In this document: piece after piece, positions 3,245-27,345 of the stretch
Position numbering within the stretch: position 1 is the first letter of the stretch
Layout: each line of letters opens with the position of its first letter
NCBI RefSeq assembly: GCF_000981785.2
Contig: NZ_CP011304.1
Coordinates: 2,550,001-2,582,000, forward strand
Reading direction: 5' to 3'
From: Microcystis aeruginosa NIES-2549
Lineage (GTDB): Bacteria; Cyanobacteriota; Cyanobacteriia; Cyanobacteriales; Microcystaceae
Length of the DNA: 32,000 nucleotides
Notes under the pieces: generated by a model
Database searches by the model: none
Seen by the model: only the letters and a program-made list of their open reading frames with translations
What the model was told of the DNA's origin: nothing
Position numbers and translations under genes: made by a program

Positions 3245-3315
3245 GCGGGTGTAGTTTAGTGGTAAAACCCTAGCCTTCCAAGCTAATGATAGGGGTTCGA
3301 TTCCCCTCACCCGCT
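3245..3315 (+). tRNA. tRNA-Gly (anticodon UCC), no encoded CCA
   Basis: Manual cloverleaf: acceptor GCGGGTG/CACCCGC, D stem GTTT/AAAC, anticodon loop CTTCCAA, T arm AGGGG-TTCGATT-CCCCT, discriminator T followed by AGG. Confidence 0.9.
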
Positions 3316-8626: not shown

Positions 8627-9097
8627 TTAATGTGAGGGAGAATTTTTTAGCAATCTTTGCCGGATGCGATCGAGATTTTCTCGACTATTGACAGGTAAAT
8701 GGGGTAAGGGTAATTCTAAATTGGGCCAATTACTCAAATCATGGCAGGGACAGGATAAACCCGATTGGCCCAGCACTTCAATTGGTACGGGTATATTACA
8801 ACGAGCGCAGGGGTGAAATTCCCATTGAGGGGAAAGTAAGTCTCGGATAGTTTGTTGAGTACCTTCTAGGTAACAATCGCCACTTTGAGGATCAAGCATT
8901 TTTTGCCAACAATCCTCAAACTCCGACGAATAGCGATCAGCATTGAAAATTGGCAGCGGAAATAGCATAGCTTGGTTTTTGGGACAAATAACTTTTTTTC
9001 CCAATTGAAACCAATGGGCGAGATATTTTTTAACGGCGGGGGTGTCTGACATATAGTTAGGTGTGGAGGCTGCCCTGATTATTGCTCTTACCATCAA
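8627..9097 (-). CDS. conserved-looking Cys-rich hypothetical protein
   Basis: 156-aa ORF with CYLEG...HPCARC...CPCHD cysteine spacing. The start could instead be the internal ATG at 9050-9052 (MSDTPAVKKYLAHWFQLGKK). I recognise no family. Confidence 0.65.
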   Translation of the reverse strand: MMVRAIIRAASTPNYMSDTPAVKKYLAHWFQLGKKVICPKNQAMLFPLPIFNADRYSSEFEDCWQKMLDPQSGDCYLEGTQQTIRDLLSPQWEFHPCARCNIPVPIEVLGQSGLSCPCHDLSNWPNLELPLPHLPVNSRENLDRIRQRLLKNSPSH

Positions 9098-10318: not shown

Positions 10319-10422
10319 CACCCCTTATCAAGGCGGCTCCCCCCGCCTATCGGCACCCCCCTTATCAAGGCGGCTCCCCCCGCCTATCGGCACCCCCCTT
10401 ATCAAGGGGGGCAGGGGGGATC
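10319..10422. repeat. tandem 35-37-bp repeat (2 full units plus a variant third) with nested hairpins, immediately 3' of the tubulin-like gene
   Basis: CACCCC(CC)TTATCAAGGCGGCTCCCCCCGCCTATCGG occurs twice, followed by CACCCCCCTTATCAAGGGGGGCAGGGGGGATC. Each unit contains GGCGG-N6-CCGCC, and the last contains CCCCTT-N3-AAGGGG. Confidence 0.85.
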
Positions 10423-10440: not shown

Positions 10441-13400
10441 CTACTTAACTAATTTTGCCCCACACTTAGAACAAAAATTAGACGAGGGCGGGTTTTTGTG
10501 TCCACAATTACCGCAGATAATTAAAGCTGGGTTAGCCACTTCCGTCACCGGAGAAAGAGGAATTTCTCCACCGCTATCCAACTTATAGTTATGGATTAAC
10601 TGCAAAATAATTGCATCTTCCCGTTTATATTCTGTATTGTCTTTTCCTCCTGTTAATTCCTCGGAACGTTGTTGTAAATATTCAATGAAAGTCCGATACA
10701 AAGCTTGTTTTTTCTCTGGAGTGGCTGAATCCTGTAACTTAGCTGTCACCTGACTTTGAATTTTTTCCTTATCTTCGCGACAAGCTTTTACTTCTAACAC
10801 CTGTACCGCGTCTTCCCAACTGGTAGCGATATCGACTTTTTTTAATCCCGTTGCGGTTTTAATTTCATAGCGAATTGTTTTCTCATTAGTGACTCGATTG
10901 ACTTCTGGAAAAAGCACTTTTAAAGCCCGGGCTGTCACCACCAATTGATAAATACTCGGATCTTCGGGAAAAACATCCCAGAAAGGAGGTTCCTTTTGGA
11001 TATGCACGGGGATGGGTAAATCGCGATTTTCTCCCATTTGTTGGGCGCGTTTAGCGAGAATAAATTCTCCTTTCCAGTCCTGATAGGATTGCCGCAGTTC
11101 TCGCATTCCCTCGAGACAGCGTAGGGAAAAACCGCCAATTTCCTGCACGAAGACAAGACGATGTTTTTCCACTTCTGCCAAGGGTTTAATATCGTCTTCG
11201 TTGGGGATAAATTCCCGCAGTTTCGGCATAATTTTTTGGGCTGCTGGGTTATTGGTATTTCTTCCCCCAATCAGGGCAACATTTTGATTTAATTGCGGCG
11301 TAAAACCCGCATCTTTTCCTCGCAAAACCGCAGGATTAAGCATAATTAGTGGTCGCGATTTTTGGTAGGCAATGCGAAGATTATTGATAATATCGGCATC
11401 GTTGTTATAAATTTTTAACAAGCGATCGCAGGCGGATAATTCCTGCTGAATGCGACTACTAGCGGGAGCATTTTGTAGTAGTTGATTAGCTTGGTTTAGG
11501 ATAACTTGTTGAAAATCTCTTTGACGAATATCGGCAATCTCGGTGATGTCAAATAAACGCATATTTTCATCAGCGCGGCGCGTTTCTTTCCAGAGGGGGC
11601 TAGATTGCTTTAAAATCTCTTCTGAGAGGGGTAAACAAAGGTTATCCATACCTGTATCGTAGGCATTTTTGTTGCCGGCAATCCCCGATGCAAATTGTTC
11701 GATAAAGTCTTGATAAAGACCATTTAATTCTTGTCTGTCAAATAATTTAATCCCATTAATTAATAAAGCATCGGCACTATCGATCTGTTGATTAGCTTGG
11801 AGATTAAATAGATCGCGACTTTGAATTAATTTCTGACGGAAGCGATTAAACCGGCTTTCTAATTGATTAAGATGTTCCAGTAAACGATTAATAACCTCTA
11901 CTCCTGCACCTCTGGTTTTTCGTTGAATATTGGCCATTAAATAGCCTTCCAATCCCGTTAAAGCTTCTTCACAATATTCTTCCATCTTATCTTTTTTCGA
12001 GATATGAAGTTTATCTTTGAGATCATTAATTTCCGCTAAGGCTGTATCGTATTCTCGTTGACGTTTACTTTCATTTTGACTCCAAACCTGTTCTTGATCG
12101 CGACGGAATTTTTCTGCTATGTCGGTGAAGATTTGTCGTACTAAAATAATAAAACTCTCGGCAAATTTTACCCCACGGTTCCGATCCTCAAGGATATTAT
12201 AAAACTCCATTTCTAGGGACTTTTTACCCCGTTGAATAATTTCATCTCGGTTACTATAAATCTTTTTCAGGTAATCGCCGTGCAGCCGTTCATCGGGACT
12301 CAATTCTAGTAAATGATTGCGTTTAAATTCCTCGACTCTTGGCGTTAAATAATCATTAATAAATTGCAGAATTTTTCCCTGTTCATTGCCTAAAATATTA
12401 ACACCCTGTTTGGTACAAGATAGCCAATTATCTTGATTGATTTCCTGACGAGTTTCGTTAATCCATTGGGAGATTATGGCAATTAAAGAGCGATCCTTGT
12501 CGGCACATAAATCCATAATTAATTCCCCTTCGCTCAAGCGCATTCTTTTGAGGATATCACCTCTGACTAACTCCAACATTTGAGCGGGTAAAATCACGGA
12601 ATCATTCAGCCACCAATTAATTAAATCTTTGGCTAAACGTTCCGATAAAGAGGCACGAATTTGGGCAATAGGAATTTCAATAGTTGATAGCCCAAAACTC
12701 ATAAATTGCTTAGGATAACCGCGACCCCCAGGGTCAGCTTGCGCCCAAGAACCCTTAATATTATCTCTAATGGAACGCTTATGGGGAGCAAAATCAGAGG
12801 TCATATCTAGGAAGATATTTTGGGCGATCATTTCCCGAATTTGACCGAGTTTAAAATCACCTTCTCCGTTTTTTGTCCCCACTAAGTAAGTAAAATCAAA
12901 GGGGGGTAGCTTACTAACAACTTCATCGACTAAACCGCTGCTAAACTGTTGATGATATTCGGTTCTGTAGTCAGAAAAGTAATTTAATTCCATCAGGGCA
13001 GCGTAACCATTAGCCAAAACTCGATCGCCGACACTAATCCCCGCAAATGCTTCAGGAGTGGGAACAATTGCCGTACTCAAAGGACTACTTTCCCCGCGTA
13101 ACCAATTACGAATACAGTAGCCTAGATCGATTAACATTCCGCTACCTGTACCACCGTTTAAAGACCCCGTAGTAAAGACATTAATAGCAGTATTATTAAC
13201 TTTAATTCCATAGCGATCGAGCATAAAGTTTTCTTGTCCTTTTACCCGTCTCACCGCATCCAGAAATTTTCTTTGGATCTCATGATAATTACAAAATAAA
13301 GCAAAACGTCCACAGGCGCGAATTTGTCCCGCTCCCGCTTCCAGGGAAGTAATATTTCTCTCTAATTCCGGGGGAAACCAACTATTAATCCAGGGATATC

Positions 13401-13677
13401 TATCCATGTCAGATACCATCTCCTGTACCTGTTTTCCACTCACCCGGGCCCAGTGTTTTTCGTTATCTTTAAAAGCACTGCCAGCAGCTTCAGGATTACT
13501 GATTTTATAATCCTTATCCGTGTCAACCACCAAAAAACTGACAATCGGAAAATTGCTCAAACTGCCATAACTTTCCTCGATTAGACGACGCAAGCGCGAT
13601 AAAATTTCGTTACCCGTGCCACCTATACCCACTAAAACCGTGGGAACCATGCTTTTTTCTTCTACTGCTGCTGGCAT
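10441..13677 (-). CDS. giant tubulin/FtsZ-superfamily GTPase-like protein with a long helical region and a C-terminal zinc ribbon
   Basis: 1078 aa. G-loop VLVGIGGTGNEIL (aa 14-26) and tubulin-signature-like GSLNGGTGSGMLIDLG (aa 171-186). The following roughly 800 aa are charged and helical. The C-terminus is CGNCGHKNPPSSNFCSKCG (CxxC-x10-CxxC). An alternative start is M10. Confidence 0.85.
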   Translation of the reverse strand: MPAAVEEKSMVPTVLVGIGGTGNEILSRLRRLIEESYGSLSNFPIVSFLVVDTDKDYKISNPEAAGSAFKDNEKHWARVSGKQVQEMVSDMDRYPWINSWFPPELERNITSLEAGAGQIRACGRFALFCNYHEIQRKFLDAVRRVKGQENFMLDRYGIKVNNTAINVFTTGSLNGGTGSGMLIDLGYCIRNWLRGESSPLSTAIVPTPEAFAGISVGDRVLANGYAALMELNYFSDYRTEYHQQFSSGLVDEVVSKLPPFDFTYLVGTKNGEGDFKLGQIREMIAQNIFLDMTSDFAPHKRSIRDNIKGSWAQADPGGRGYPKQFMSFGLSTIEIPIAQIRASLSERLAKDLINWWLNDSVILPAQMLELVRGDILKRMRLSEGELIMDLCADKDRSLIAIISQWINETRQEINQDNWLSCTKQGVNILGNEQGKILQFINDYLTPRVEEFKRNHLLELSPDERLHGDYLKKIYSNRDEIIQRGKKSLEMEFYNILEDRNRGVKFAESFIILVRQIFTDIAEKFRRDQEQVWSQNESKRQREYDTALAEINDLKDKLHISKKDKMEEYCEEALTGLEGYLMANIQRKTRGAGVEVINRLLEHLNQLESRFNRFRQKLIQSRDLFNLQANQQIDSADALLINGIKLFDRQELNGLYQDFIEQFASGIAGNKNAYDTGMDNLCLPLSEEILKQSSPLWKETRRADENMRLFDITEIADIRQRDFQQVILNQANQLLQNAPASSRIQQELSACDRLLKIYNNDADIINNLRIAYQKSRPLIMLNPAVLRGKDAGFTPQLNQNVALIGGRNTNNPAAQKIMPKLREFIPNEDDIKPLAEVEKHRLVFVQEIGGFSLRCLEGMRELRQSYQDWKGEFILAKRAQQMGENRDLPIPVHIQKEPPFWDVFPEDPSIYQLVVTARALKVLFPEVNRVTNEKTIRYEIKTATGLKKVDIATSWEDAVQVLEVKACREDKEKIQSQVTAKLQDSATPEKKQALYRTFIEYLQQRSEELTGGKDNTEYKREDAIILQLIHNYKLDSGGEIPLSPVTEVANPALIICGNCGHKNPPSSNFCSKCGAKLVK

Positions 13678-13679
13678 AA

Positions 13680-14636
13680 TTATTTAACTCCTAAGGCCAT
13701 TTCTTGACGATTGCGAGGGACTTCGTAGGCGAGGAAATCGTAGGCTAATTTAGTGTTAGGAAAAATTGCCCGCGCTTCCTCTAACAGATTGGAAATATCC
13801 AGAGAATTACCCGGTAGATAACGGGGGCTAAAATGGGTCATTAATAACAATTTTACCCTGGCTGCCAAGGCCACCTGGGCTGCCATCGTCGAAGTGGAGT
13901 GAACACTTTCAAAGGCTAACCCGGCATCTTGGTGTGCAAAAGTCGCCTCATGAATTAACACATCTGCATCGCGTGCCAATTCGATCGATCCTTCACAAAA
14001 AATAGTATCGGTACAGTAGGCAATTTTACGGCCGATTTCCGTTTCCCCGCAGAGAGACTGACCGCGAATTTTTCTGCCATCGGGAAGGGTGACAGTTTCC
14101 CCTTTTTTCAGCTTGCCGTAAATCGGTCCGGGGGGAATACCTAAAGCGTTGGCTTTTTCCACATCAAAACGTCCAGGACGGTCTTTTTCCGCGATGCGAT
14201 AACCGTGGGCGGGAATACGATGTTTTAATAGCTGACAGGAGACGGTAAATTCTTCATCTTCGTAGAGTATGCCGGGGGAAATGGCATGGACACGCACCCG
14301 ATTGGCGAAATTAGTATAGGAATACTTAGCACAAGCACGCAGATAGTCCCCTAGTCCGGGGGGTCCGTAGATATCAATATCCTGAGCAGAACCGGCTAAT
14401 CCGATACTGGCTAACAATCCCATTAAACCAAAGATATGATCCCCGTGCATGTGGGTGATAAAAATGCGTCGGATTTGGGAACTTTTTAGGTCGCTACGCA
14501 GTAACTGGTGTTGAGTTCCTTCTCCACAGTCAAACAGCCATATTTCCGCCCGTTGCGGCAACCGAAGGGCGATACTAGAGACATTACGCGAACGAGTCGG
14601 AACCCCGGAACTGGTTCCTAAAAAAGTAATCTCCAC
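13680..14636 (-). CDS. rnz: ribonuclease Z (tRNA 3' endonuclease, metallo-beta-lactamase fold)
   Basis: 318 aa with N-terminus MEITFLGTSSGVPT, histidine motif ITHMHGDHIFGL and C-terminal LLMTHFSPRY. Confidence 0.93.
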   Translation of the reverse strand: MEITFLGTSSGVPTRSRNVSSIALRLPQRAEIWLFDCGEGTQHQLLRSDLKSSQIRRIFITHMHGDHIFGLMGLLASIGLAGSAQDIDIYGPPGLGDYLRACAKYSYTNFANRVRVHAISPGILYEDEEFTVSCQLLKHRIPAHGYRIAEKDRPGRFDVEKANALGIPPGPIYGKLKKGETVTLPDGRKIRGQSLCGETEIGRKIAYCTDTIFCEGSIELARDADVLIHEATFAHQDAGLAFESVHSTSTMAAQVALAARVKLLLMTHFSPRYLPGNSLDISNLLEEARAIFPNTKLAYDFLAYEVPRNRQEMALGVK

Positions 14637-15142
14637 AGGATAGCTGTCAGGATAGAGGATTCTTTTTCTAGTCTAGGCTGTTTTGATCGATTTCTCGATC
14701 AAATTGCTGCTTTTCTGTATTTGATCACTTGGAAACAGGAAATCCCCTGATTTTGACCTAACTCTGCAATAATTACTCGCAGCCAGAAATACGTTGGTTC
14801 ATATATCATACTTTGTGCTTTTTGTCAAAAAAACTTTTTTTTTGCAATAAAACTACACAAAAAAAAGATCATCGTTGTGGGTGAAATTGACTGATTTACT
14901 CGTCTTAATTAGGATCACCTTGTAGGTGTGGCAAGGGTTTCAACCATTGCCGCCCAAAAAAGCACAAAATAACCCATTATGAAATTCAGTAAAATCGCTG
15001 TAACCATTATAACATCGTTGTTAAATAAAAATCTTTCTCAATTAATTCTTAAGAATTTGTAAATATTGCGGAATGTTAATTTAAATATTCTCAAGCTTTT
15101 GGAGTCAATAAATAATTTTTGCTTATCTTTGTCCAACATCAG

Positions 15143-15345
15143 GTTAGAAGTTAGAAGTTAGAAGTCAGGAGTCAGGAGATTATTTTTATTTATTCTTCCC
15201 ACACCCCACACCCCTCTCCCATCACCCCACACCCCACACCCCACACCCCACACCCGTTCGGACCTCGGACGTTCGGCGAGACTTCGGACGTTCGGCGAGA
15301 CTTCGGCGTGAGCTTTTGTCGAACGCTGATCTCACGGCCGAAGCC
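15143..15345. repeat. composite short-tandem-repeat block inside a 1.1-kb AT-rich gene desert
   Basis: (GTTAGAA)x3 and (GTCAGGA)x2 at 15143-15178. (CCCCACA)n at about 15198-15255. A 19-nt unit ACGTTCGGCGAGACTTCGG occurs twice at about 15269-15306, preceded by a degenerate partial copy. A long imperfect hairpin CTTCGGCGTGAG...CTCACGGCCGAAG lies at about 15301-15343. Confidence 0.85.
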
Positions 15346-15727
15346 CACACCCCATCCCTAGAACGATTTTGGATTGAGAATCCTGAAAATCCTCAAATCC
15401 TGATTAGATTTTGGCTTGTTAGAACTTCCTGTAAATATTGACTTTACTCTGTTTCTTGTTACCTTAATCCTAAAAGTTAGAACGAGATTGTAACAAAAAA
15501 CAACAAAAAATAACAAAAAAAATGATGAAAATTTACAAAAAAGAATCCCAAAAGTGTTGAAAAATAAATCAAGTATGCGTACTATTCAACAAAGTAAAGA
15601 AAAAACCGAATCTTAAAACTGCTGCAAGTGGGTTGGGCGCATTGACATCCTCTCGCAGTATAACAGCGAAGATTGCTAAATCTCACGATTTAGGCTTCTG
15701 CTTCCTTCATCCCTACATACTATAGTT

Positions 15728-15829
15728 ATGACCACACTTCTAGTCCCAGTTTACCTTGATGCCCTCTACCTCCCCACCAAGACAAATGTACTGGAGGAAA
15801 TGACTGATTATCAGCAATTCTCATTTTGA
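15728..15829 (+). pseudogene. 33-codon stub, probably the 5' end of a gene destroyed by the adjacent IS
   Basis: ATG at 15728, translation MTTLLVPVYLDALYLPTKTNVLEEMTDYQQFSF, then TGA at 15827-15829. This is 14 nt before the IS inverted repeat, and possibly at the IS terminus itself if the IR extends to GAAAACAAAAG. Confidence 0.3.
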
Positions 15830-15843
15830 AAACAAAAGAAGAT

Positions 15844-17489
15844 AAAGTTCTCTATGTGAACAAGAGAACTTCTGTCTAATTATCATTTTTTTTCAAGATA
15901 ATCATCATAATTAGCTTCAAGAGACAGTTTTAAAATATCTGCCCATAAATAAACTTATCTCAACTCATAAATTTAGCTGAAATTCTGACCTAATTTGTGG
16001 TTTTTTCAATGAATAAAATAATCTTTCCTTCTCTCGAAAAATTGACATTTTTAACTAGAATTTATTTTTTTGAGCGGGACATATTCGGTAAGAATAAACA
16101 AGAAAAACTCTGACCAATTCTTAAACCAAAAATATTTTAATAAAGTACGAATATCATTAAAAAAACTGGTGCGAGTAACTAATAACTCACGAATATTTTG
16201 ATAAGTATGATTAACTAAATCTAAAACGGTATGAAATAAAAAAGCTAGTAAATTTAAAGACAACAAGAACTCGCATAAATGACTTTGACCATGACCAAAA
16301 TTATGTTCTAAATTATAACCGTGATTTTTAAGAACGTTATTTCCTTCATTCTCAACTTTCCATCTGCTGCGTCCAGCTTTGACAATTTTTTCAACATTAT
16401 TTTCAGTAATTTGATGATTGGTAATCCAATTATTTTGATAGATAATTTTCTGTGTTTTTTCATTAATGACCGTGACTTCACACCAATTAACTTCGAGACT
16501 TGACTCGACCTCTCTCAGAGGAACTCTAGAAACATAACGATAACGATAAATGAGATTCTTTCGTCCATCCCATTGTTTCTTTTCTACGGCTTTAACTTCT
16601 CCACTTTTTTCTAAAAATTCTAGCCATTCATATAAGGTTTTATGAGAAGTTTCAAGACAAACAAAAATAAAATTATAACCTTGTTTTAGAGCTAACTCAC
16701 AGATAGGTTGGCGAGAGTATAAGTCATCTCCTAACAGGGTTACAGGATAACCATACTTCTTTTGATGATTCTTATCTAACCATCTTTTAACAGCCGCATT
16801 TTCACAATCTTGTTTTTGCTGCCCATCTTGTTTTTTAATAAATTCTGGTTCTAAATTAATCACTTGTTTTTGCTCAGGAGAAACCACAATTGGCGTGACG
16901 CAACCATGAAAATAAGTTGTCGTTCCATTACGATGATTGCGGCAATTACAATGGGGACAACTAATTTTCTTTGAAGAAAAATATTCCGTACCATCTAAAG
17001 CTATTAAAATTTCCTCATCTAAGTAGAAAAATTTTTTAATAACTCCCTGTTTTTTTAACCATTGATAGACTTGTTGAAAAGAGCCAAATATTGTGGCAGC
17101 TGGGATAGGATCTAACAGGTTTCTGATTTGATTATCACCAGGTATTTTTTTGATACCAAATAAACTTGAAGCATTATCTTTTCCCTTACTACTTTTCATC
17201 AAACGTTGATGCTCTAAAAAAGAAGGTGACTGAGTAAAAAAAACCGAAAAAGCCGCCTTAACTGCATCTTCTACCTGATATTTGGTATTGTTTCCTGGTT
17301 TTCTGTCATCGGGTAAGTCATGTAATTCTTGAACTAAAAATTGTATTAATTCAGGAATTTCTAAAGTCACAGCCTTTTTCGTCATCGCAGAACAGTTTGA
17401 TTAATTAATATTTCCAACTTAATAATTTTACCTCAACAGACAACAATCATCAATTTTTATTTGGTTCTCTTTCTGATGTAGAGAACTTT
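15844..17489 (-). mobile_element. insertion sequence, about 1.65 kb, single DDE transposase, imperfect 26-bp terminal inverted repeats
   Basis: Left end AAAGTTCTCTATGTGAACAAGAGAAC (15844-15869) versus the reverse complement of the right end AAAGTTCTCTACATCAGAAAGAGAAC (17464-17489), 21/26 identical. Each end is itself a hairpin (GTTCTCT-N9-AGAGAAC). The interior is very AT-rich. No flanking direct repeat was found. Confidence 0.75.
16051..17385 (-). CDS. DDE-type IS transposase (IS4/ISNCY-like; family not verified)
   Basis: 444 aa. It has a CPHC...C zinc-finger-like segment, LLGDDLYS, and the C-terminal RSRWKVENEGNNVLKNHGYNLEHNFGHG block characteristic of RW-x-x-E-N-E DDE transposases. It lies between the inverted repeats. 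Confidence 0.85.
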   Translation of the reverse strand: MTKKAVTLEIPELIQFLVQELHDLPDDRKPGNNTKYQVEDAVKAAFSVFFTQSPSFLEHQRLMKSSKGKDNASSLFGIKKIPGDNQIRNLLDPIPAATIFGSFQQVYQWLKKQGVIKKFFYLDEEILIALDGTEYFSSKKISCPHCNCRNHRNGTTTYFHGCVTPIVVSPEQKQVINLEPEFIKKQDGQQKQDCENAAVKRWLDKNHQKKYGYPVTLLGDDLYSRQPICELALKQGYNFIFVCLETSHKTLYEWLEFLEKSGEVKAVEKKQWDGRKNLIYRYRYVSRVPLREVESSLEVNWCEVTVINEKTQKIIYQNNWITNHQITENNVEKIVKAGRSRWKVENEGNNVLKNHGYNLEHNFGHGQSHLCEFLLSLNLLAFLFHTVLDLVNHTYQNIRELLVTRTSFFNDIRTLLKYFWFKNWSEFFLFILTEYVPLKKINSS

Positions 17490-17659: not shown

Positions 17660-19246
17660 ATGCCCATATCCATCGGCTCCGGCTTTATTGCCATCGGACT
17701 CAAGTTTACCTGCTTCCAGATGTTAGACTGCTTTGCGCTGCTAACCGTCGCCTTTGGGGAAGATTTCGAGATCAACCTGTTGGGAATTGCCAAGATGAAA
17801 ATTCCCACTCCGGCAAAAGACTCGAAAAATACAAGCTGTATTCTCAATATGACGATGCTCCTACGAGCCAGATTTTCTCTGAGTGAAGGAGTAATCTCCA
17901 TAGAAGGTCAATTAGCCTCAGATTGCTACATCCTATCGCCAGATTGCCGCTTAACTGGTGGCTTTGCCGTCTGTCTCTGGGTTTCTGGCCCTCATGCAGG
18001 GGATTTTGTCATTACTTTAGGCGGTTATCACCCCCTATTCAAAAAACCTGCCCACTATCCTACAGTCCCTCGTCTGGGTTTCCACTGGAAAGTAGGAGAT
18101 TGCCTATCCCTCAAGGGAGAAAAATACTTTGCTCTGTGCGCTCATGCCATCATGGCCGGTGGCCGACTAGAAGCCAATTTCAAACTCGGTAAACTGTGGG
18201 CTAACTTTGTCGCTGAGGCTCATTTCCTCATCTCTTGGAAACCCTACTACTACGAAATCCTAGTACAAGTGAGGATTCAAGCTGGCTATGGAATACTCGG
18301 ACCTGTTAGTTTAGGGGTGCAACTCCATATCTGGGGTCCAGAATTTGCCGGTACAGCCACATTCTGGATTATCTTCGTCAAAGTCACTGTGGAATTTGGC
18401 GATCAATCTTCTCGCTTACCAGAGCCTATCGATTGGGAAAGTTTCCAAAGTTCCTTCTTACCCCCTGCGAAATCAACAGCACAAGGTTCATCAACAGCTG
18501 CAGACGTTTGTAGTGTTGTTCTCAATCAAGGAGTCACCAAACAACTCTCACCAGCAACAACCAAAGAAGTCGCCTTTGTCGTCAATCCCAAAGAGTTAGA
18601 GCTAGTAGTTAATTCTGCTATCCCCAGCAAGCAAGCATCTTACAATACCCAATCTCTTGGGGTGAATAACAACACCGATTTTGGCGTTCGTTCCATGGGC
18701 ATTAAAAATGCTCAACTCGAAAGCAAGTACAACATCAAAATTACCCGGAAGACAAAGGGAGGAATCTCACAACCCGTTGACCAGAACCAGTTCCAATTTA
18801 TCCCGATAACTCAAGATGTACCAACCGCACTTTGGGGCGATGCTAAAGTTAAAGTTGTCAAAGTAAAGGGTAAAGACTCAGAACGAATTCTTCTCCCTGA
18901 AGCTAACGATCAGCAATTTGTTAAGAACACCCTCTCCGGTTTCCGGATTGTTCCTCAAATCAAGAAAGATGTCTGTAGCACCAATAGTATTGATGTCAAG
19001 AAATTGCGACACGATACCACCCGCCTAAGTGACGTTTACGCTTGGCAACAAATGACGGCTTTTTCTGGGGTTTCTACCGACAATCAAGCTCGAACTACAG
19101 CCATCAAAAACAACATTGTCAGCACCAATACTCAGAAGACGCGCAACAATCTGCTCCAATCTCTCGGCTTTAATCTAGCCGATGATGTTAAATTAACCGA
19201 TTCGGTGGCTAATTCTTTTGTCACTGCACCCCAGGTTAAAGCGTAA
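17660..19246 (+). CDS. 5'-truncated remnant of a large uncharacterised protein (GGYHP-motif domain; reminiscent of the DUF6603 family from memory, unverified)
   Basis: 528-aa ORF with an in-frame stop 27 nt upstream of its first ATG. The conserved-looking core is GGFAVCLWVSGPHAGDFVITLGGYHPLFKKPAHYPTVPRLGFHW...MAGGRLEANF...FLISWKPYYYEI. It starts about 170 bp after the IS end with no SD or promoter context. Confidence 0.6.
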   Translation: MPISIGSGFIAIGLKFTCFQMLDCFALLTVAFGEDFEINLLGIAKMKIPTPAKDSKNTSCILNMTMLLRARFSLSEGVISIEGQLASDCYILSPDCRLTGGFAVCLWVSGPHAGDFVITLGGYHPLFKKPAHYPTVPRLGFHWKVGDCLSLKGEKYFALCAHAIMAGGRLEANFKLGKLWANFVAEAHFLISWKPYYYEILVQVRIQAGYGILGPVSLGVQLHIWGPEFAGTATFWIIFVKVTVEFGDQSSRLPEPIDWESFQSSFLPPAKSTAQGSSTAADVCSVVLNQGVTKQLSPATTKEVAFVVNPKELELVVNSAIPSKQASYNTQSLGVNNNTDFGVRSMGIKNAQLESKYNIKITRKTKGGISQPVDQNQFQFIPITQDVPTALWGDAKVKVVKVKGKDSERILLPEANDQQFVKNTLSGFRIVPQIKKDVCSTNSIDVKKLRHDTTRLSDVYAWQQMTAFSGVSTDNQARTTAIKNNIVSTNTQKTRNNLLQSLGFNLADDVKLTDSVANSFVTAPQVKA

Positions 19247-27273: not shown

Positions 27274-27345
27274 AGCGGGCAACGCGATTCGAACGCGCGA
27301 CATTCACCTTGGCAAGGTGACGCTCTACCACTGAGCTATGCCCGC
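27274..27345 (-). tRNA. tRNA-Gly (anticodon GCC), no encoded CCA
   Basis: The reverse complement folds as acceptor GCGGGCA/TGCCCGC, D arm GCTC-AGTGGTA-GAGC, anticodon arm TCACC-TTGCCAA-GGTGA, T arm GCGCG-TTCGAAT-CGCGT. The discriminator T is followed by TGG. Confidence 0.92.

Follow-up and report, generated by a model that had tools for sequence, protein, structure and literature searches.

We analysed a 32,000-nucleotide stretch of the genome of Microcystis aeruginosa NIES-2549 (contig NZ_CP011304.1, positions 2,550,001 to 2,582,000, forward strand; hereafter the window), in which an open reading frame (ORF) for a tubulin-like protein of 1078 amino acids (aa) directly follows rnz, the gene for ribonuclease Z (RNase Z). 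The ORF is the Microcystis ortholog, of the MAE_54080 type, of FtsZl1 (FtsZ-like 1), the family modelled as Tubulin_2 in Pfam, and within the tubulin/FtsZ GTPase superfamily FtsZl1 is a branch that has diverged deeply. The family was defined by Makarova and Koonin in 2010 (Biol Direct 5:33; PMC2875224), so the classification itself is not new. The overall explanation that we favour, and regard as fairly probable, is that FtsZl1 forms a GTP-dependent assembly at the cell envelope and that its placement next to rnz is incidental.

Family identity and conservation of the protein

The N-terminal part of the protein scored 372 bits with the Pfam Tubulin_2 model (PF13809), whose cut-off is 27, at E 4.3e-111; residues 14-353 cover profile positions 1-355 of 356. 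A preliminary description of this DNA, made from the sequence alone, had proposed a PF13809-like family, and the whole-profile match bears this out. According to a 2023 family survey, PF13809 is the Pfam form of the Makarova-Koonin family. Additional files 1, 4 and 5 of the 2010 study give MAE_54080 of M. aeruginosa NIES-843 (1078 aa) as an FtsZl1 member, and the tree of that study places it in a vertically inherited clade of cyanobacterial members (PMC2875224). The closest protein matches to the window ORF are 1078-aa Microcystis proteins that are 97-98% identical to it and carry the name 'tubulin-like domain-containing protein'; the orthology to MAE_54080 rests on this identity and on equal length (1078 aa), not on a direct alignment. 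As described for the family, the protein combines an FtsZ-like domain at its N-terminus with an extended helical region and a distinct C-terminal domain, and has no FtsZ_C or Tubulin_C domain.

Pfam and fold comparison both reveal the kinship with tubulin, which searches of a hidden Markov model against sequences do not. The canonical Tubulin/FtsZ model (PF00091) stayed below threshold, with 15.2 bits versus a cut-off of 33 over aa 14-56 only. No Pfam match to FtsZ_C or Tubulin_C was found in the protein, and the NCBIfam search assigned it to no family. Among PDB sequences the protein found only the zinc ribbon of eL40 (E 0.31) and no FtsZ, and a profile of 72 family members brought up neither FtsZ nor tubulin, its matches being confined to low-complexity helical sequences such as apolipoprotein.

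A HMMER search returned 4,238 representative clusters at E<=0.001. The preliminary description had taken the length and architecture to be unusual; a length of ~1000-1200 aa is in fact the norm and holds for the majority of the 150 best representatives. The alignment with relatives at 30-41% identity extends along aa 1-1030. A scan of one genome per species found relatives in 314 species, and across cyanobacterial orders the protein is conserved over its full length at 57-72% identity. We inspected 80 loci together with as much as 8 kb of flanking DNA on either side, 11 of them from Microcystis and 69 from other cyanobacteria (including Chroococcales, Oscillatoriales, Nostocales, Spirulinales and Thermosynechococcus). 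Each of the 11 Microcystis loci has an intact gene, and the N-terminus of the window protein aligns with the N-termini of homologs. FtsZl1 is under strong purifying selection across cyanobacteria.

Our literature search by family names and locus tags found no experimental work on any FtsZl1 member, and the preliminary description had likewise known of no experimental function. The protein is not undescribed, however, as MAE_54080 is in the 2010 list. FtsZl1 is not listed for Synechocystis PCC 6803, PCC 7942 or PCC 7002 in the supplementary lists of Makarova and Koonin (PMC2875224), and this absence probably explains why the family has gone unstudied. A second Microcystis paralog, MAE_58770 (1049 aa), is listed in Additional file 5 of the same study in the cluster vWA-FtsZl1-B7-B7-OmpA. 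With MAE_54080 and MAE_58770 the genome therefore holds one solitary and one fully partnered FtsZl1 copy.

A tubulin-type fold with conserved nucleotide-binding loops

The AlphaFold (AF2) model that we used was built from 72 sequences spanning 20-72% identity. Its mean predicted local distance difference test score (pLDDT) was 90.8 and its predicted template modelling score (pTM) 0.80, with uncertainty only in the first five residues and in the tail linker. An earlier AlphaFold model, built from 22 close homologs, was rejected (pLDDT 65.7, aa 205-335 below 50, no fold match at E<=1e-3). Foldseek searches with the accepted model gave 64 PDB matches at E<=1e-3, and the 50 that were listed were all CetZ or tubulin (probability 1.00, 339-370 aligned columns). 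The best structures were CetZ2 (4b45_A), CetZ (3zid_B, root-mean-square deviation 5.1 A, template modelling (TM) score 0.46), beta-tubulins (for example 4i50_D, TM 0.42) and gamma-tubulins, and in a library of viral models (BFVD) the top three matches were phage FtsZ/tubulins. The elements are modelled in the order S1-H1, S2, an insert, the T3-like loop, S4-T4-H4, S5, H5, S6 and a core helix at aa 277-293, which is the order of the superfamily including an H7-like helix. The sequence analysis of 2010 had aligned FtsZl1 only as far as H5, whereas the present model adds the H7-like helix and about 350 tubulin-alignable columns. The first ~360 aa are thus predicted to fold into a nucleotide-binding domain of the tubulin/FtsZ type, in which the T1, T3-like and T4 loops are intact, as the preliminary description had expected of the N-terminal domain.

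In order to assess the loops, residue conservation was counted in 100 distant relatives (<=41% identity, down to 20%). In the T1 loop GIGGTG, residues G17, G19, G20 and G22 are 95-98% conserved. The T3-like loop GAGQIRACGR is a signature of the family, with G115 conserved in 99%, R120 in 100% and R124 in 96% of these relatives. The T4 loop GGTGSG has G175-G176-T177-G178 at 100% and G180 at 98%, and is followed by D184 at 96%. Both GIGGTG and GGTGSG lie where the preliminary description had put them, as does the CxxC-x10-CxxC motif at the end of the protein, and its expectation that the GTP-binding residues would be conserved among homologs agrees with loop residues at 95-100%. An hhalign comparison with a single E. 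coli FtsZ sequence entered by hand reached only E 0.006 at a probability of 6%, and this weak alignment served for motif mapping only; in it the loops map to T1, T3, T4 and T5 of FtsZ.

The T7 loop is less clear. The segment KRSIRDNIK, in the helix after the predicted H7, is invariant in the cyanobacterial clade, and its modelled position suggests that it may be the T7/H8 equivalent. Family-wide, R304 is conserved in 78%, N306 in 84% and D305, the candidate catalytic acid, in 35%. Residues that are invariant across the family and suited to mutagenesis are D52, W100, R120, G175-G178, G329 and Y865.

FtsZl1 thus shares with CetZ, tubulin, FtsZ and the phage tubulins the nucleotide-binding fold and the T1 (GxGGxG), T3-like (GAGxxR) and T4 (GGTGSG) loops. 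It differs from the canonical superfamily in its sub-threshold PF00091 score and its lack of FtsZ_C and Tubulin_C, in several inserts between T1 and T4, in a reduced activation domain without a clearly conserved T7 catalytic acid, and in an additional ~700 aa made up of a stalk, a C-terminal domain and a zinc ribbon.

A helical stalk, a C-terminal domain and an exchangeable tail

From about aa 360 to 780 the model is helical and includes a stalk of three long helices (aa 468-497, 502-554 and 561-637), for which the only PDB matches were non-specific helical ones. The ~800 aa beyond the N-terminal domain had been described as charged and helix-prone. This is correct for the composition (30% D/E/K/R) and for the region up to aa 780, but aa ~780-1030 form a conserved alpha/beta domain in the model and not a coiled coil. 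Its predicted strands lie at aa 795-803, 830-833, 840-850, 923-926, 933-941 and 944-951, in contrast to the 2010 description, in which the C-terminal domain consists mainly of alpha-helices. Family-wide, E846 is conserved in 93%, Y865 in 100% and H892 in 92%, and the domain had no match in Pfam or NCBIfam. No transmembrane segment was found in the protein (maximum Kyte-Doolittle score 1.15), and because of this FtsZl1 is predicted to be a soluble cytoplasmic protein.

The protein ends in a zinc ribbon (Zn_Ribbon_1, PF13240; 31.6 bits, cut-off 25, E 1.3e-7). While the body (aa 1-1030) is conserved throughout, the linker and the small terminal module that follow it vary. At the same position after the variable linker, the 80 loci encode a zinc ribbon in 64 cases, a SHOCT-like module in 7, a GYF-like module in 7 and another tail in 2 (Pfam labels PF13240 for the ribbon, PF09851 and PF14237 for the SHOCT/GYF tails). 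Zinc ribbons can bind nucleic acids, and the preliminary description had envisaged a nucleic-acid- or protein-binding ribbon. A nucleic-acid role is not favoured by the 14 of 80 orthologs with a SHOCT- or GYF-like module. Since the ribbon is swapped for these modules on a flexible tether, the tail sequences suggest an exchangeable docking or oligomerisation adaptor rather than a dedicated nucleic-acid-binding element.

Neighbours of FtsZl1 in other cyanobacteria

Unbiased clustering of all flanking ORFs produced two neighbour families, both encoded upstream of FtsZl1 and on the same strand. Family A (~300 aa) stands upstream of FtsZl1 in 50 of the 69 loci from outside Microcystis. It scores above threshold for Pfam VWA, has a conserved DxSxS metal-ion-dependent adhesion site (MIDAS) motif, and carries hydrophobic segments on both sides, giving a transmembrane-vWA-transmembrane layout. 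Family B (~540 aa), present in 43 of the 69, consists of an N-terminal Cys cluster, one transmembrane segment, a TPR-like stretch and then a domain of the LivJ/Leu-Ile-Val-binding-protein type (profile versus PDB LivJ/LIVBP, E 6.5e-13; PF13458). In most non-Microcystis loci the order is B, then A, then FtsZl1 (for example L031:5347-7905 and L033:159-1064), and in the nearest relative of the Microcystis loci (L010) as well as in Crocosphaera it is FTR1-B-A-FtsZl1. Makarova and Koonin list the trio of COG0683 periplasmic binding protein, COG2304 vWA protein and FtsZl1 only for Arthrospira platensis (Additional file 5); a reviewer raised this trio, which the authors discounted as restricted to a lineage (PMC2875224).

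In most of the other cyanobacteria sampled, the ortholog of the window protein belongs to this trio, whereas in Microcystis the trio is dissolved. A tblastn search with the A and B families found no match in the window or in the 11 Microcystis loci with their 8-kb flanks, so that the window differs from the usual family context in having rnz upstream in place of an adjacent vWA gene. Microcystis keeps B elsewhere, in the order ferritin-FTR1-B (two clusters, with 147 and 410 members, at 55% identity). At one such B locus (L081:5417-9128; M. aeruginosa, MDZH01000098.1), an unrelated Pro-rich ORF of 156 aa takes the place expected for the vWA gene. The 120 best matches to A in a set of 5.8 billion proteins included none from Microcystis, from which we infer the absence of an ortholog. 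The ancestral B-A-FtsZl1 cluster was broken in the Microcystis lineage, with apparent loss of the vWA gene and placement of FtsZl1 behind rnz.

Some loci also have recurrent genes on the other side. In Microcoleus and Tychonema, FtsZl1 is often followed by arrays of genes for a Ser/Thr kinase, COP23 and a trypsin-TPR-pilin-like protein (L055:11647-19339), and similar stretches were seen in L060, L063-L066, L068, L070-L072, L075 and L077. In the Spirulina locus (L017), a kinase gene lies directly downstream of FtsZl1.

Adjacency to rnz is confined to Microcystis

In the window, FtsZl1 is surrounded by a transposase-like ORF and the genes rnz, argF and malQ. The rnz product is RNase Z at the equivalog level (NCBIfam NF000801, 388 bits with a cut-off of 252; TIGR02651, 373 bits with a cut-off of 293) and also matches Pfam Lactamase_B_2. 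The junction of the two minus-strand genes reads ...GGAGTTAAATAAttATGCCAGCA, and in a longer stretch GGAGTTAAATAAttATG; the FtsZl1 ATG stands 2 nucleotides (nt) past the rnz TAA, as reported in the preliminary description, with a GGAG 11-14 nt upstream of the ATG. All 11 Microcystis loci share this junction with identical spacing, one synonymous A/G change apart. No terminator-like or promoter-like site was found on the minus strand inside or just after rnz. Because of this and the 2-nt gap, rnz and FtsZl1 are probably co-transcribed in Microcystis.

It had been proposed that this linkage might be meaningful unless it was unique to the strain. Since every one of the 11 Microcystis loci has rnz immediately upstream, it is not strain-specific; it does not extend beyond the genus, as no rnz was found within 8 kb of FtsZl1 in any of the 69 other loci, including the nearest relative (72% identity), and it is uninformative for function. 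The 11 Microcystis loci amount to one evolutionary observation because they are 97-98% identical. We read the adjacency as a genus-specific accident of rearrangement, with no comparative support for a functional link to tRNA 3' processing.

Proposed mechanism and alternative explanations

In the envelope-assembly explanation, GTP binding would lead the N-terminal domains to self-associate, the stalk and the C-terminal domain would build or regulate the assembly, and the exchangeable tail would attach it to a partner protein located at the cytoplasmic membrane. For most cyanobacteria these partners would be the upstream-encoded vWA membrane protein with its intact MIDAS and the membrane-anchored LivJ-type receptor, their main domains being periplasmic. 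Such a system would be an envelope-associated, possibly ligand-controlled GTPase assembly, which is in line with the membrane-remodelling role proposed for the family in 2010 (PMC2875224).

Several points weigh against this explanation. The model's TM-scores against CetZ and tubulin, normalised to target length, lie in a moderate range (0.42-0.48). Past the H7-like helix, the model has only one helix (aa 297-312) and a single strand (aa 325-334), not the four-stranded activation domain of FtsZ and tubulin, and filament-activated GTP hydrolysis is uncertain because the candidate T7 acid is so poorly conserved family-wide. GTP binding, hydrolysis, polymerisation and membrane association of FtsZl1 are all properties that we infer. 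In Microcystis, where no vWA ortholog is detectable, a partner-dependent mechanism cannot apply unchanged, and the 2-nt gap makes a shared transcript with rnz very probable there.

The reduced activation domain and the weakly kept T7 acid would also suit a GTP-binding switch or scaffold that forms no filaments, built on the logic of a GTPase head on a helical stalk and communicating to targets in the cytoplasm the state of the LivJ-like receptor in the periplasm. Makarova and Koonin did not identify T6-H7 and raised the option of no filament themselves (PMC2875224); in addition, the conserved partner B is of a ligand-binding receptor type, and kinases are often encoded downstream. We nevertheless consider a switch unlikely, as every characterised member of the tubulin/FtsZ superfamily polymerises (PMC2875224), the model aligns to tubulin over ~350 columns including H7, and the invariance of KRSIRDNIK after H7 in cyanobacteria is consistent with a conserved inter-subunit surface. 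Another reading places the protein in a nucleoside triphosphate-dependent biological-conflict (anti-phage or abortive) system, in which it would act as a threshold-setting multimer. Kaur, Burroughs, Iyer and Aravind (2020, eLife 9:e52696) grouped neighbourhoods of tubulins with C-terminal coiled coils beside multi-transmembrane, extracellular-vWA proteins with GAP1-N2 GTPase-centric systems, and took them for conflict systems with an enrichment in multicellular bacteria (PMC7159879). FtsZl1 resembles these in its tubulin-like domain, its C-terminal helical region and the vWA membrane neighbour of its orthologs in other cyanobacteria, and the Ser/Thr kinase, COP23 and trypsin-TPR-pilin genes that follow FtsZl1 in Microcoleus, Tychonema and Spirulina would fit as well. 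However, those systems come from firmicutes and actinobacteria, the cyanobacterial partners are instead a LivJ-like receptor and a vWA protein, and no GAP1 GTPase, FNIII protein or HSP70 is encoded in the window or in the cyanobacterial loci examined. PADLOC gave no meaningful match (best E 0.0023, in the coiled-coil region only). The clade is vertically inherited and conserved over its full length across orders, unlike rapidly diversifying defence genes, the neighbours in the window (rnz, argF, malQ) are housekeeping genes, and the GTPase and effector components are missing from the window; because of these points we rate a conflict role lower than the envelope assembly and regard it as unlikely.

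Two further possibilities carry far less weight. The tight junction with rnz, with its 2-nt gap free of a terminator- or promoter-like site and its fixation in all 11 Microcystis loci, could be taken to mean that the zinc ribbon of a GTPase polymer binds RNA or RNase Z and organises or regulates tRNA 3' processing. This we hold to be very improbable, since the arrangement is a single observation that the closest relative and all the other non-Microcystis loci lack, the ancestral context is B-A-FtsZl1, SHOCT or GYF modules replace the ribbon in orthologs, and MAE_54080 was shown without conserved neighbours in the supplement of Makarova and Koonin (PMC2875224). The resemblance of T1 and T4 to FtsZ motifs might in turn suggest a second cell-division FtsZ. 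As a statement of family membership this is excluded, and as a role its chance is negligible, given the failure of PF00091 to reach its cut-off, the missing FtsZ_C, the PDB sequence and profile searches that find no FtsZ, an architecture that differs by ~700 aa, and the lack of FtsZl1 in the lists for Synechocystis PCC 6803, PCC 7942 and PCC 7002. The GTP-dependent envelope assembly thus remains our preferred account of FtsZl1.

Features of the locus and its surroundings

The coordinates of the gene, its domains and its junction with rnz are collected in Table 1.

Table 1. FtsZl1, its predicted parts and the adjoining rnz gene (positions are those of the window).
Feature	Position	Strand	Residues	Basis or remark
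FtsZl1 gene	10441..13677	minus	1-1078	Complete, ATG start, TAG stop at 10441-10443; MAE_54080 ortholog
rnz, ribonuclease Z	13680..14636	minus	318 aa	GTG start; neighbour upstream of FtsZl1
Spacer (tt), rnz TAA to FtsZl1 ATG	13678..13679	minus		2 nt; sequence reading
Tubulin/FtsZ-like GTPase domain (predicted)	12619..13638	minus	14-353	Pfam Tubulin_2; AF2 and Foldseek
T1 (G-box) loop GIGGTG	13612..13629	minus	17-22	Translation; aligns to FtsZ GVGGGG
T3-like loop GAGQIRACGR	13306..13335	minus	115-124	Family-signature motif; weak alignment to FtsZ T3 GAGANPEVGR
T4 tubulin-signature loop GGTGSG	13138..13155	minus	175-180	Translation; aligns to FtsZ GGGTGTG
KRSIRDNIK, candidate T7/H8 equivalent	12754..12780	minus	300-308	Model secondary structure; in helix after predicted H7
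Long-helix stalk (predicted)	11767..12276	minus	468-637	AF2, pLDDT mostly >90
Conserved C-terminal alpha/beta domain (predicted)	10588..11340	minus	~780-1030	AF2
Variable low-confidence linker	10528..10587	minus	1031-1050	pLDDT <50 at aa 1037-1050; length and sequence vary among orthologs
Zinc ribbon	10450..10515	minus	1055-1076	Pfam Zn_Ribbon_1; CGNC-x10-CSKC at aa 1055-1072 (nt 10462-10515)

Downstream of FtsZl1, a perfect 37-bp tandem repeat of 2.4 copies (CCCCTTATCAAGGCGGCTCCCCCCGCCTATCGGCACC) occupies window positions 10321-10407, between the FtsZl1 stop and the start of argF. Beyond argF lies a Cys-rich ORF of 156 aa (8627-9097, minus strand), which had no Pfam match and is kept in the Microcystis loci at 91-95% identity.

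On the other side, upstream of rnz, a 1.4-kb stretch has no ORF of at least 60 aa (within window 14637-17385). This non-coding DNA contains the heptamer CCCACAC in 8.3 copies (15198-15255) and a 19-bp repeat in 2.4 copies (15261-15306), and is followed by a transposase-like ORF of 444 aa (16051-17385, minus strand) without a Pfam match. The repeats and this ORF may mark the rearrangement that joined rnz and FtsZl1. Next to it, a 528-aa ORF on the plus strand (17660-19246) has a match to DUF6603 that is limited to the C-terminal part (positions 185-477 of the 502 in the profile), and may have been truncated beside the transposase-like ORF. Two tRNA genes, at 3245-3315 (plus strand) and 27274-27345 (minus strand), were the sole Rfam matches in the window, and neither is near rnz-FtsZl1.

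Implications for the FtsZl1 family

As a locus the finding is an ordinary one, since the family was named in 2010, has its own Pfam model and is already annotated by NCBI as tubulin-like. Its lasting interest lies in the FtsZl1 family, which is widespread and has diverged further than any other branch of the tubulin/FtsZ superfamily, rather than in this locus. What has been gained is a confident full-length model with a predicted tubulin-type fold through H7, a list of invariant residues, and the LivJ-like receptor and vWA protein as the usual companions of FtsZl1 in cyanobacteria.

A more far-reaching version of the envelope assembly can be drawn from these companions, though we think it unlikely. 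The MAE_54080-type clade would be a core, vertically inherited cyanobacterial cytoskeletal GTPase whose assembly on the inner face of the cytoplasmic membrane is controlled from the periplasm by the LivJ-type receptor and the MIDAS-containing vWA protein, and in Microcystis the polymer would have been uncoupled from its vWA anchor and brought under the housekeeping expression of rnz. If true, FtsZl1 would be a ligand-gated tubulin-like polymer, a kind of system so far undescribed, and Microcystis would be a natural experiment.

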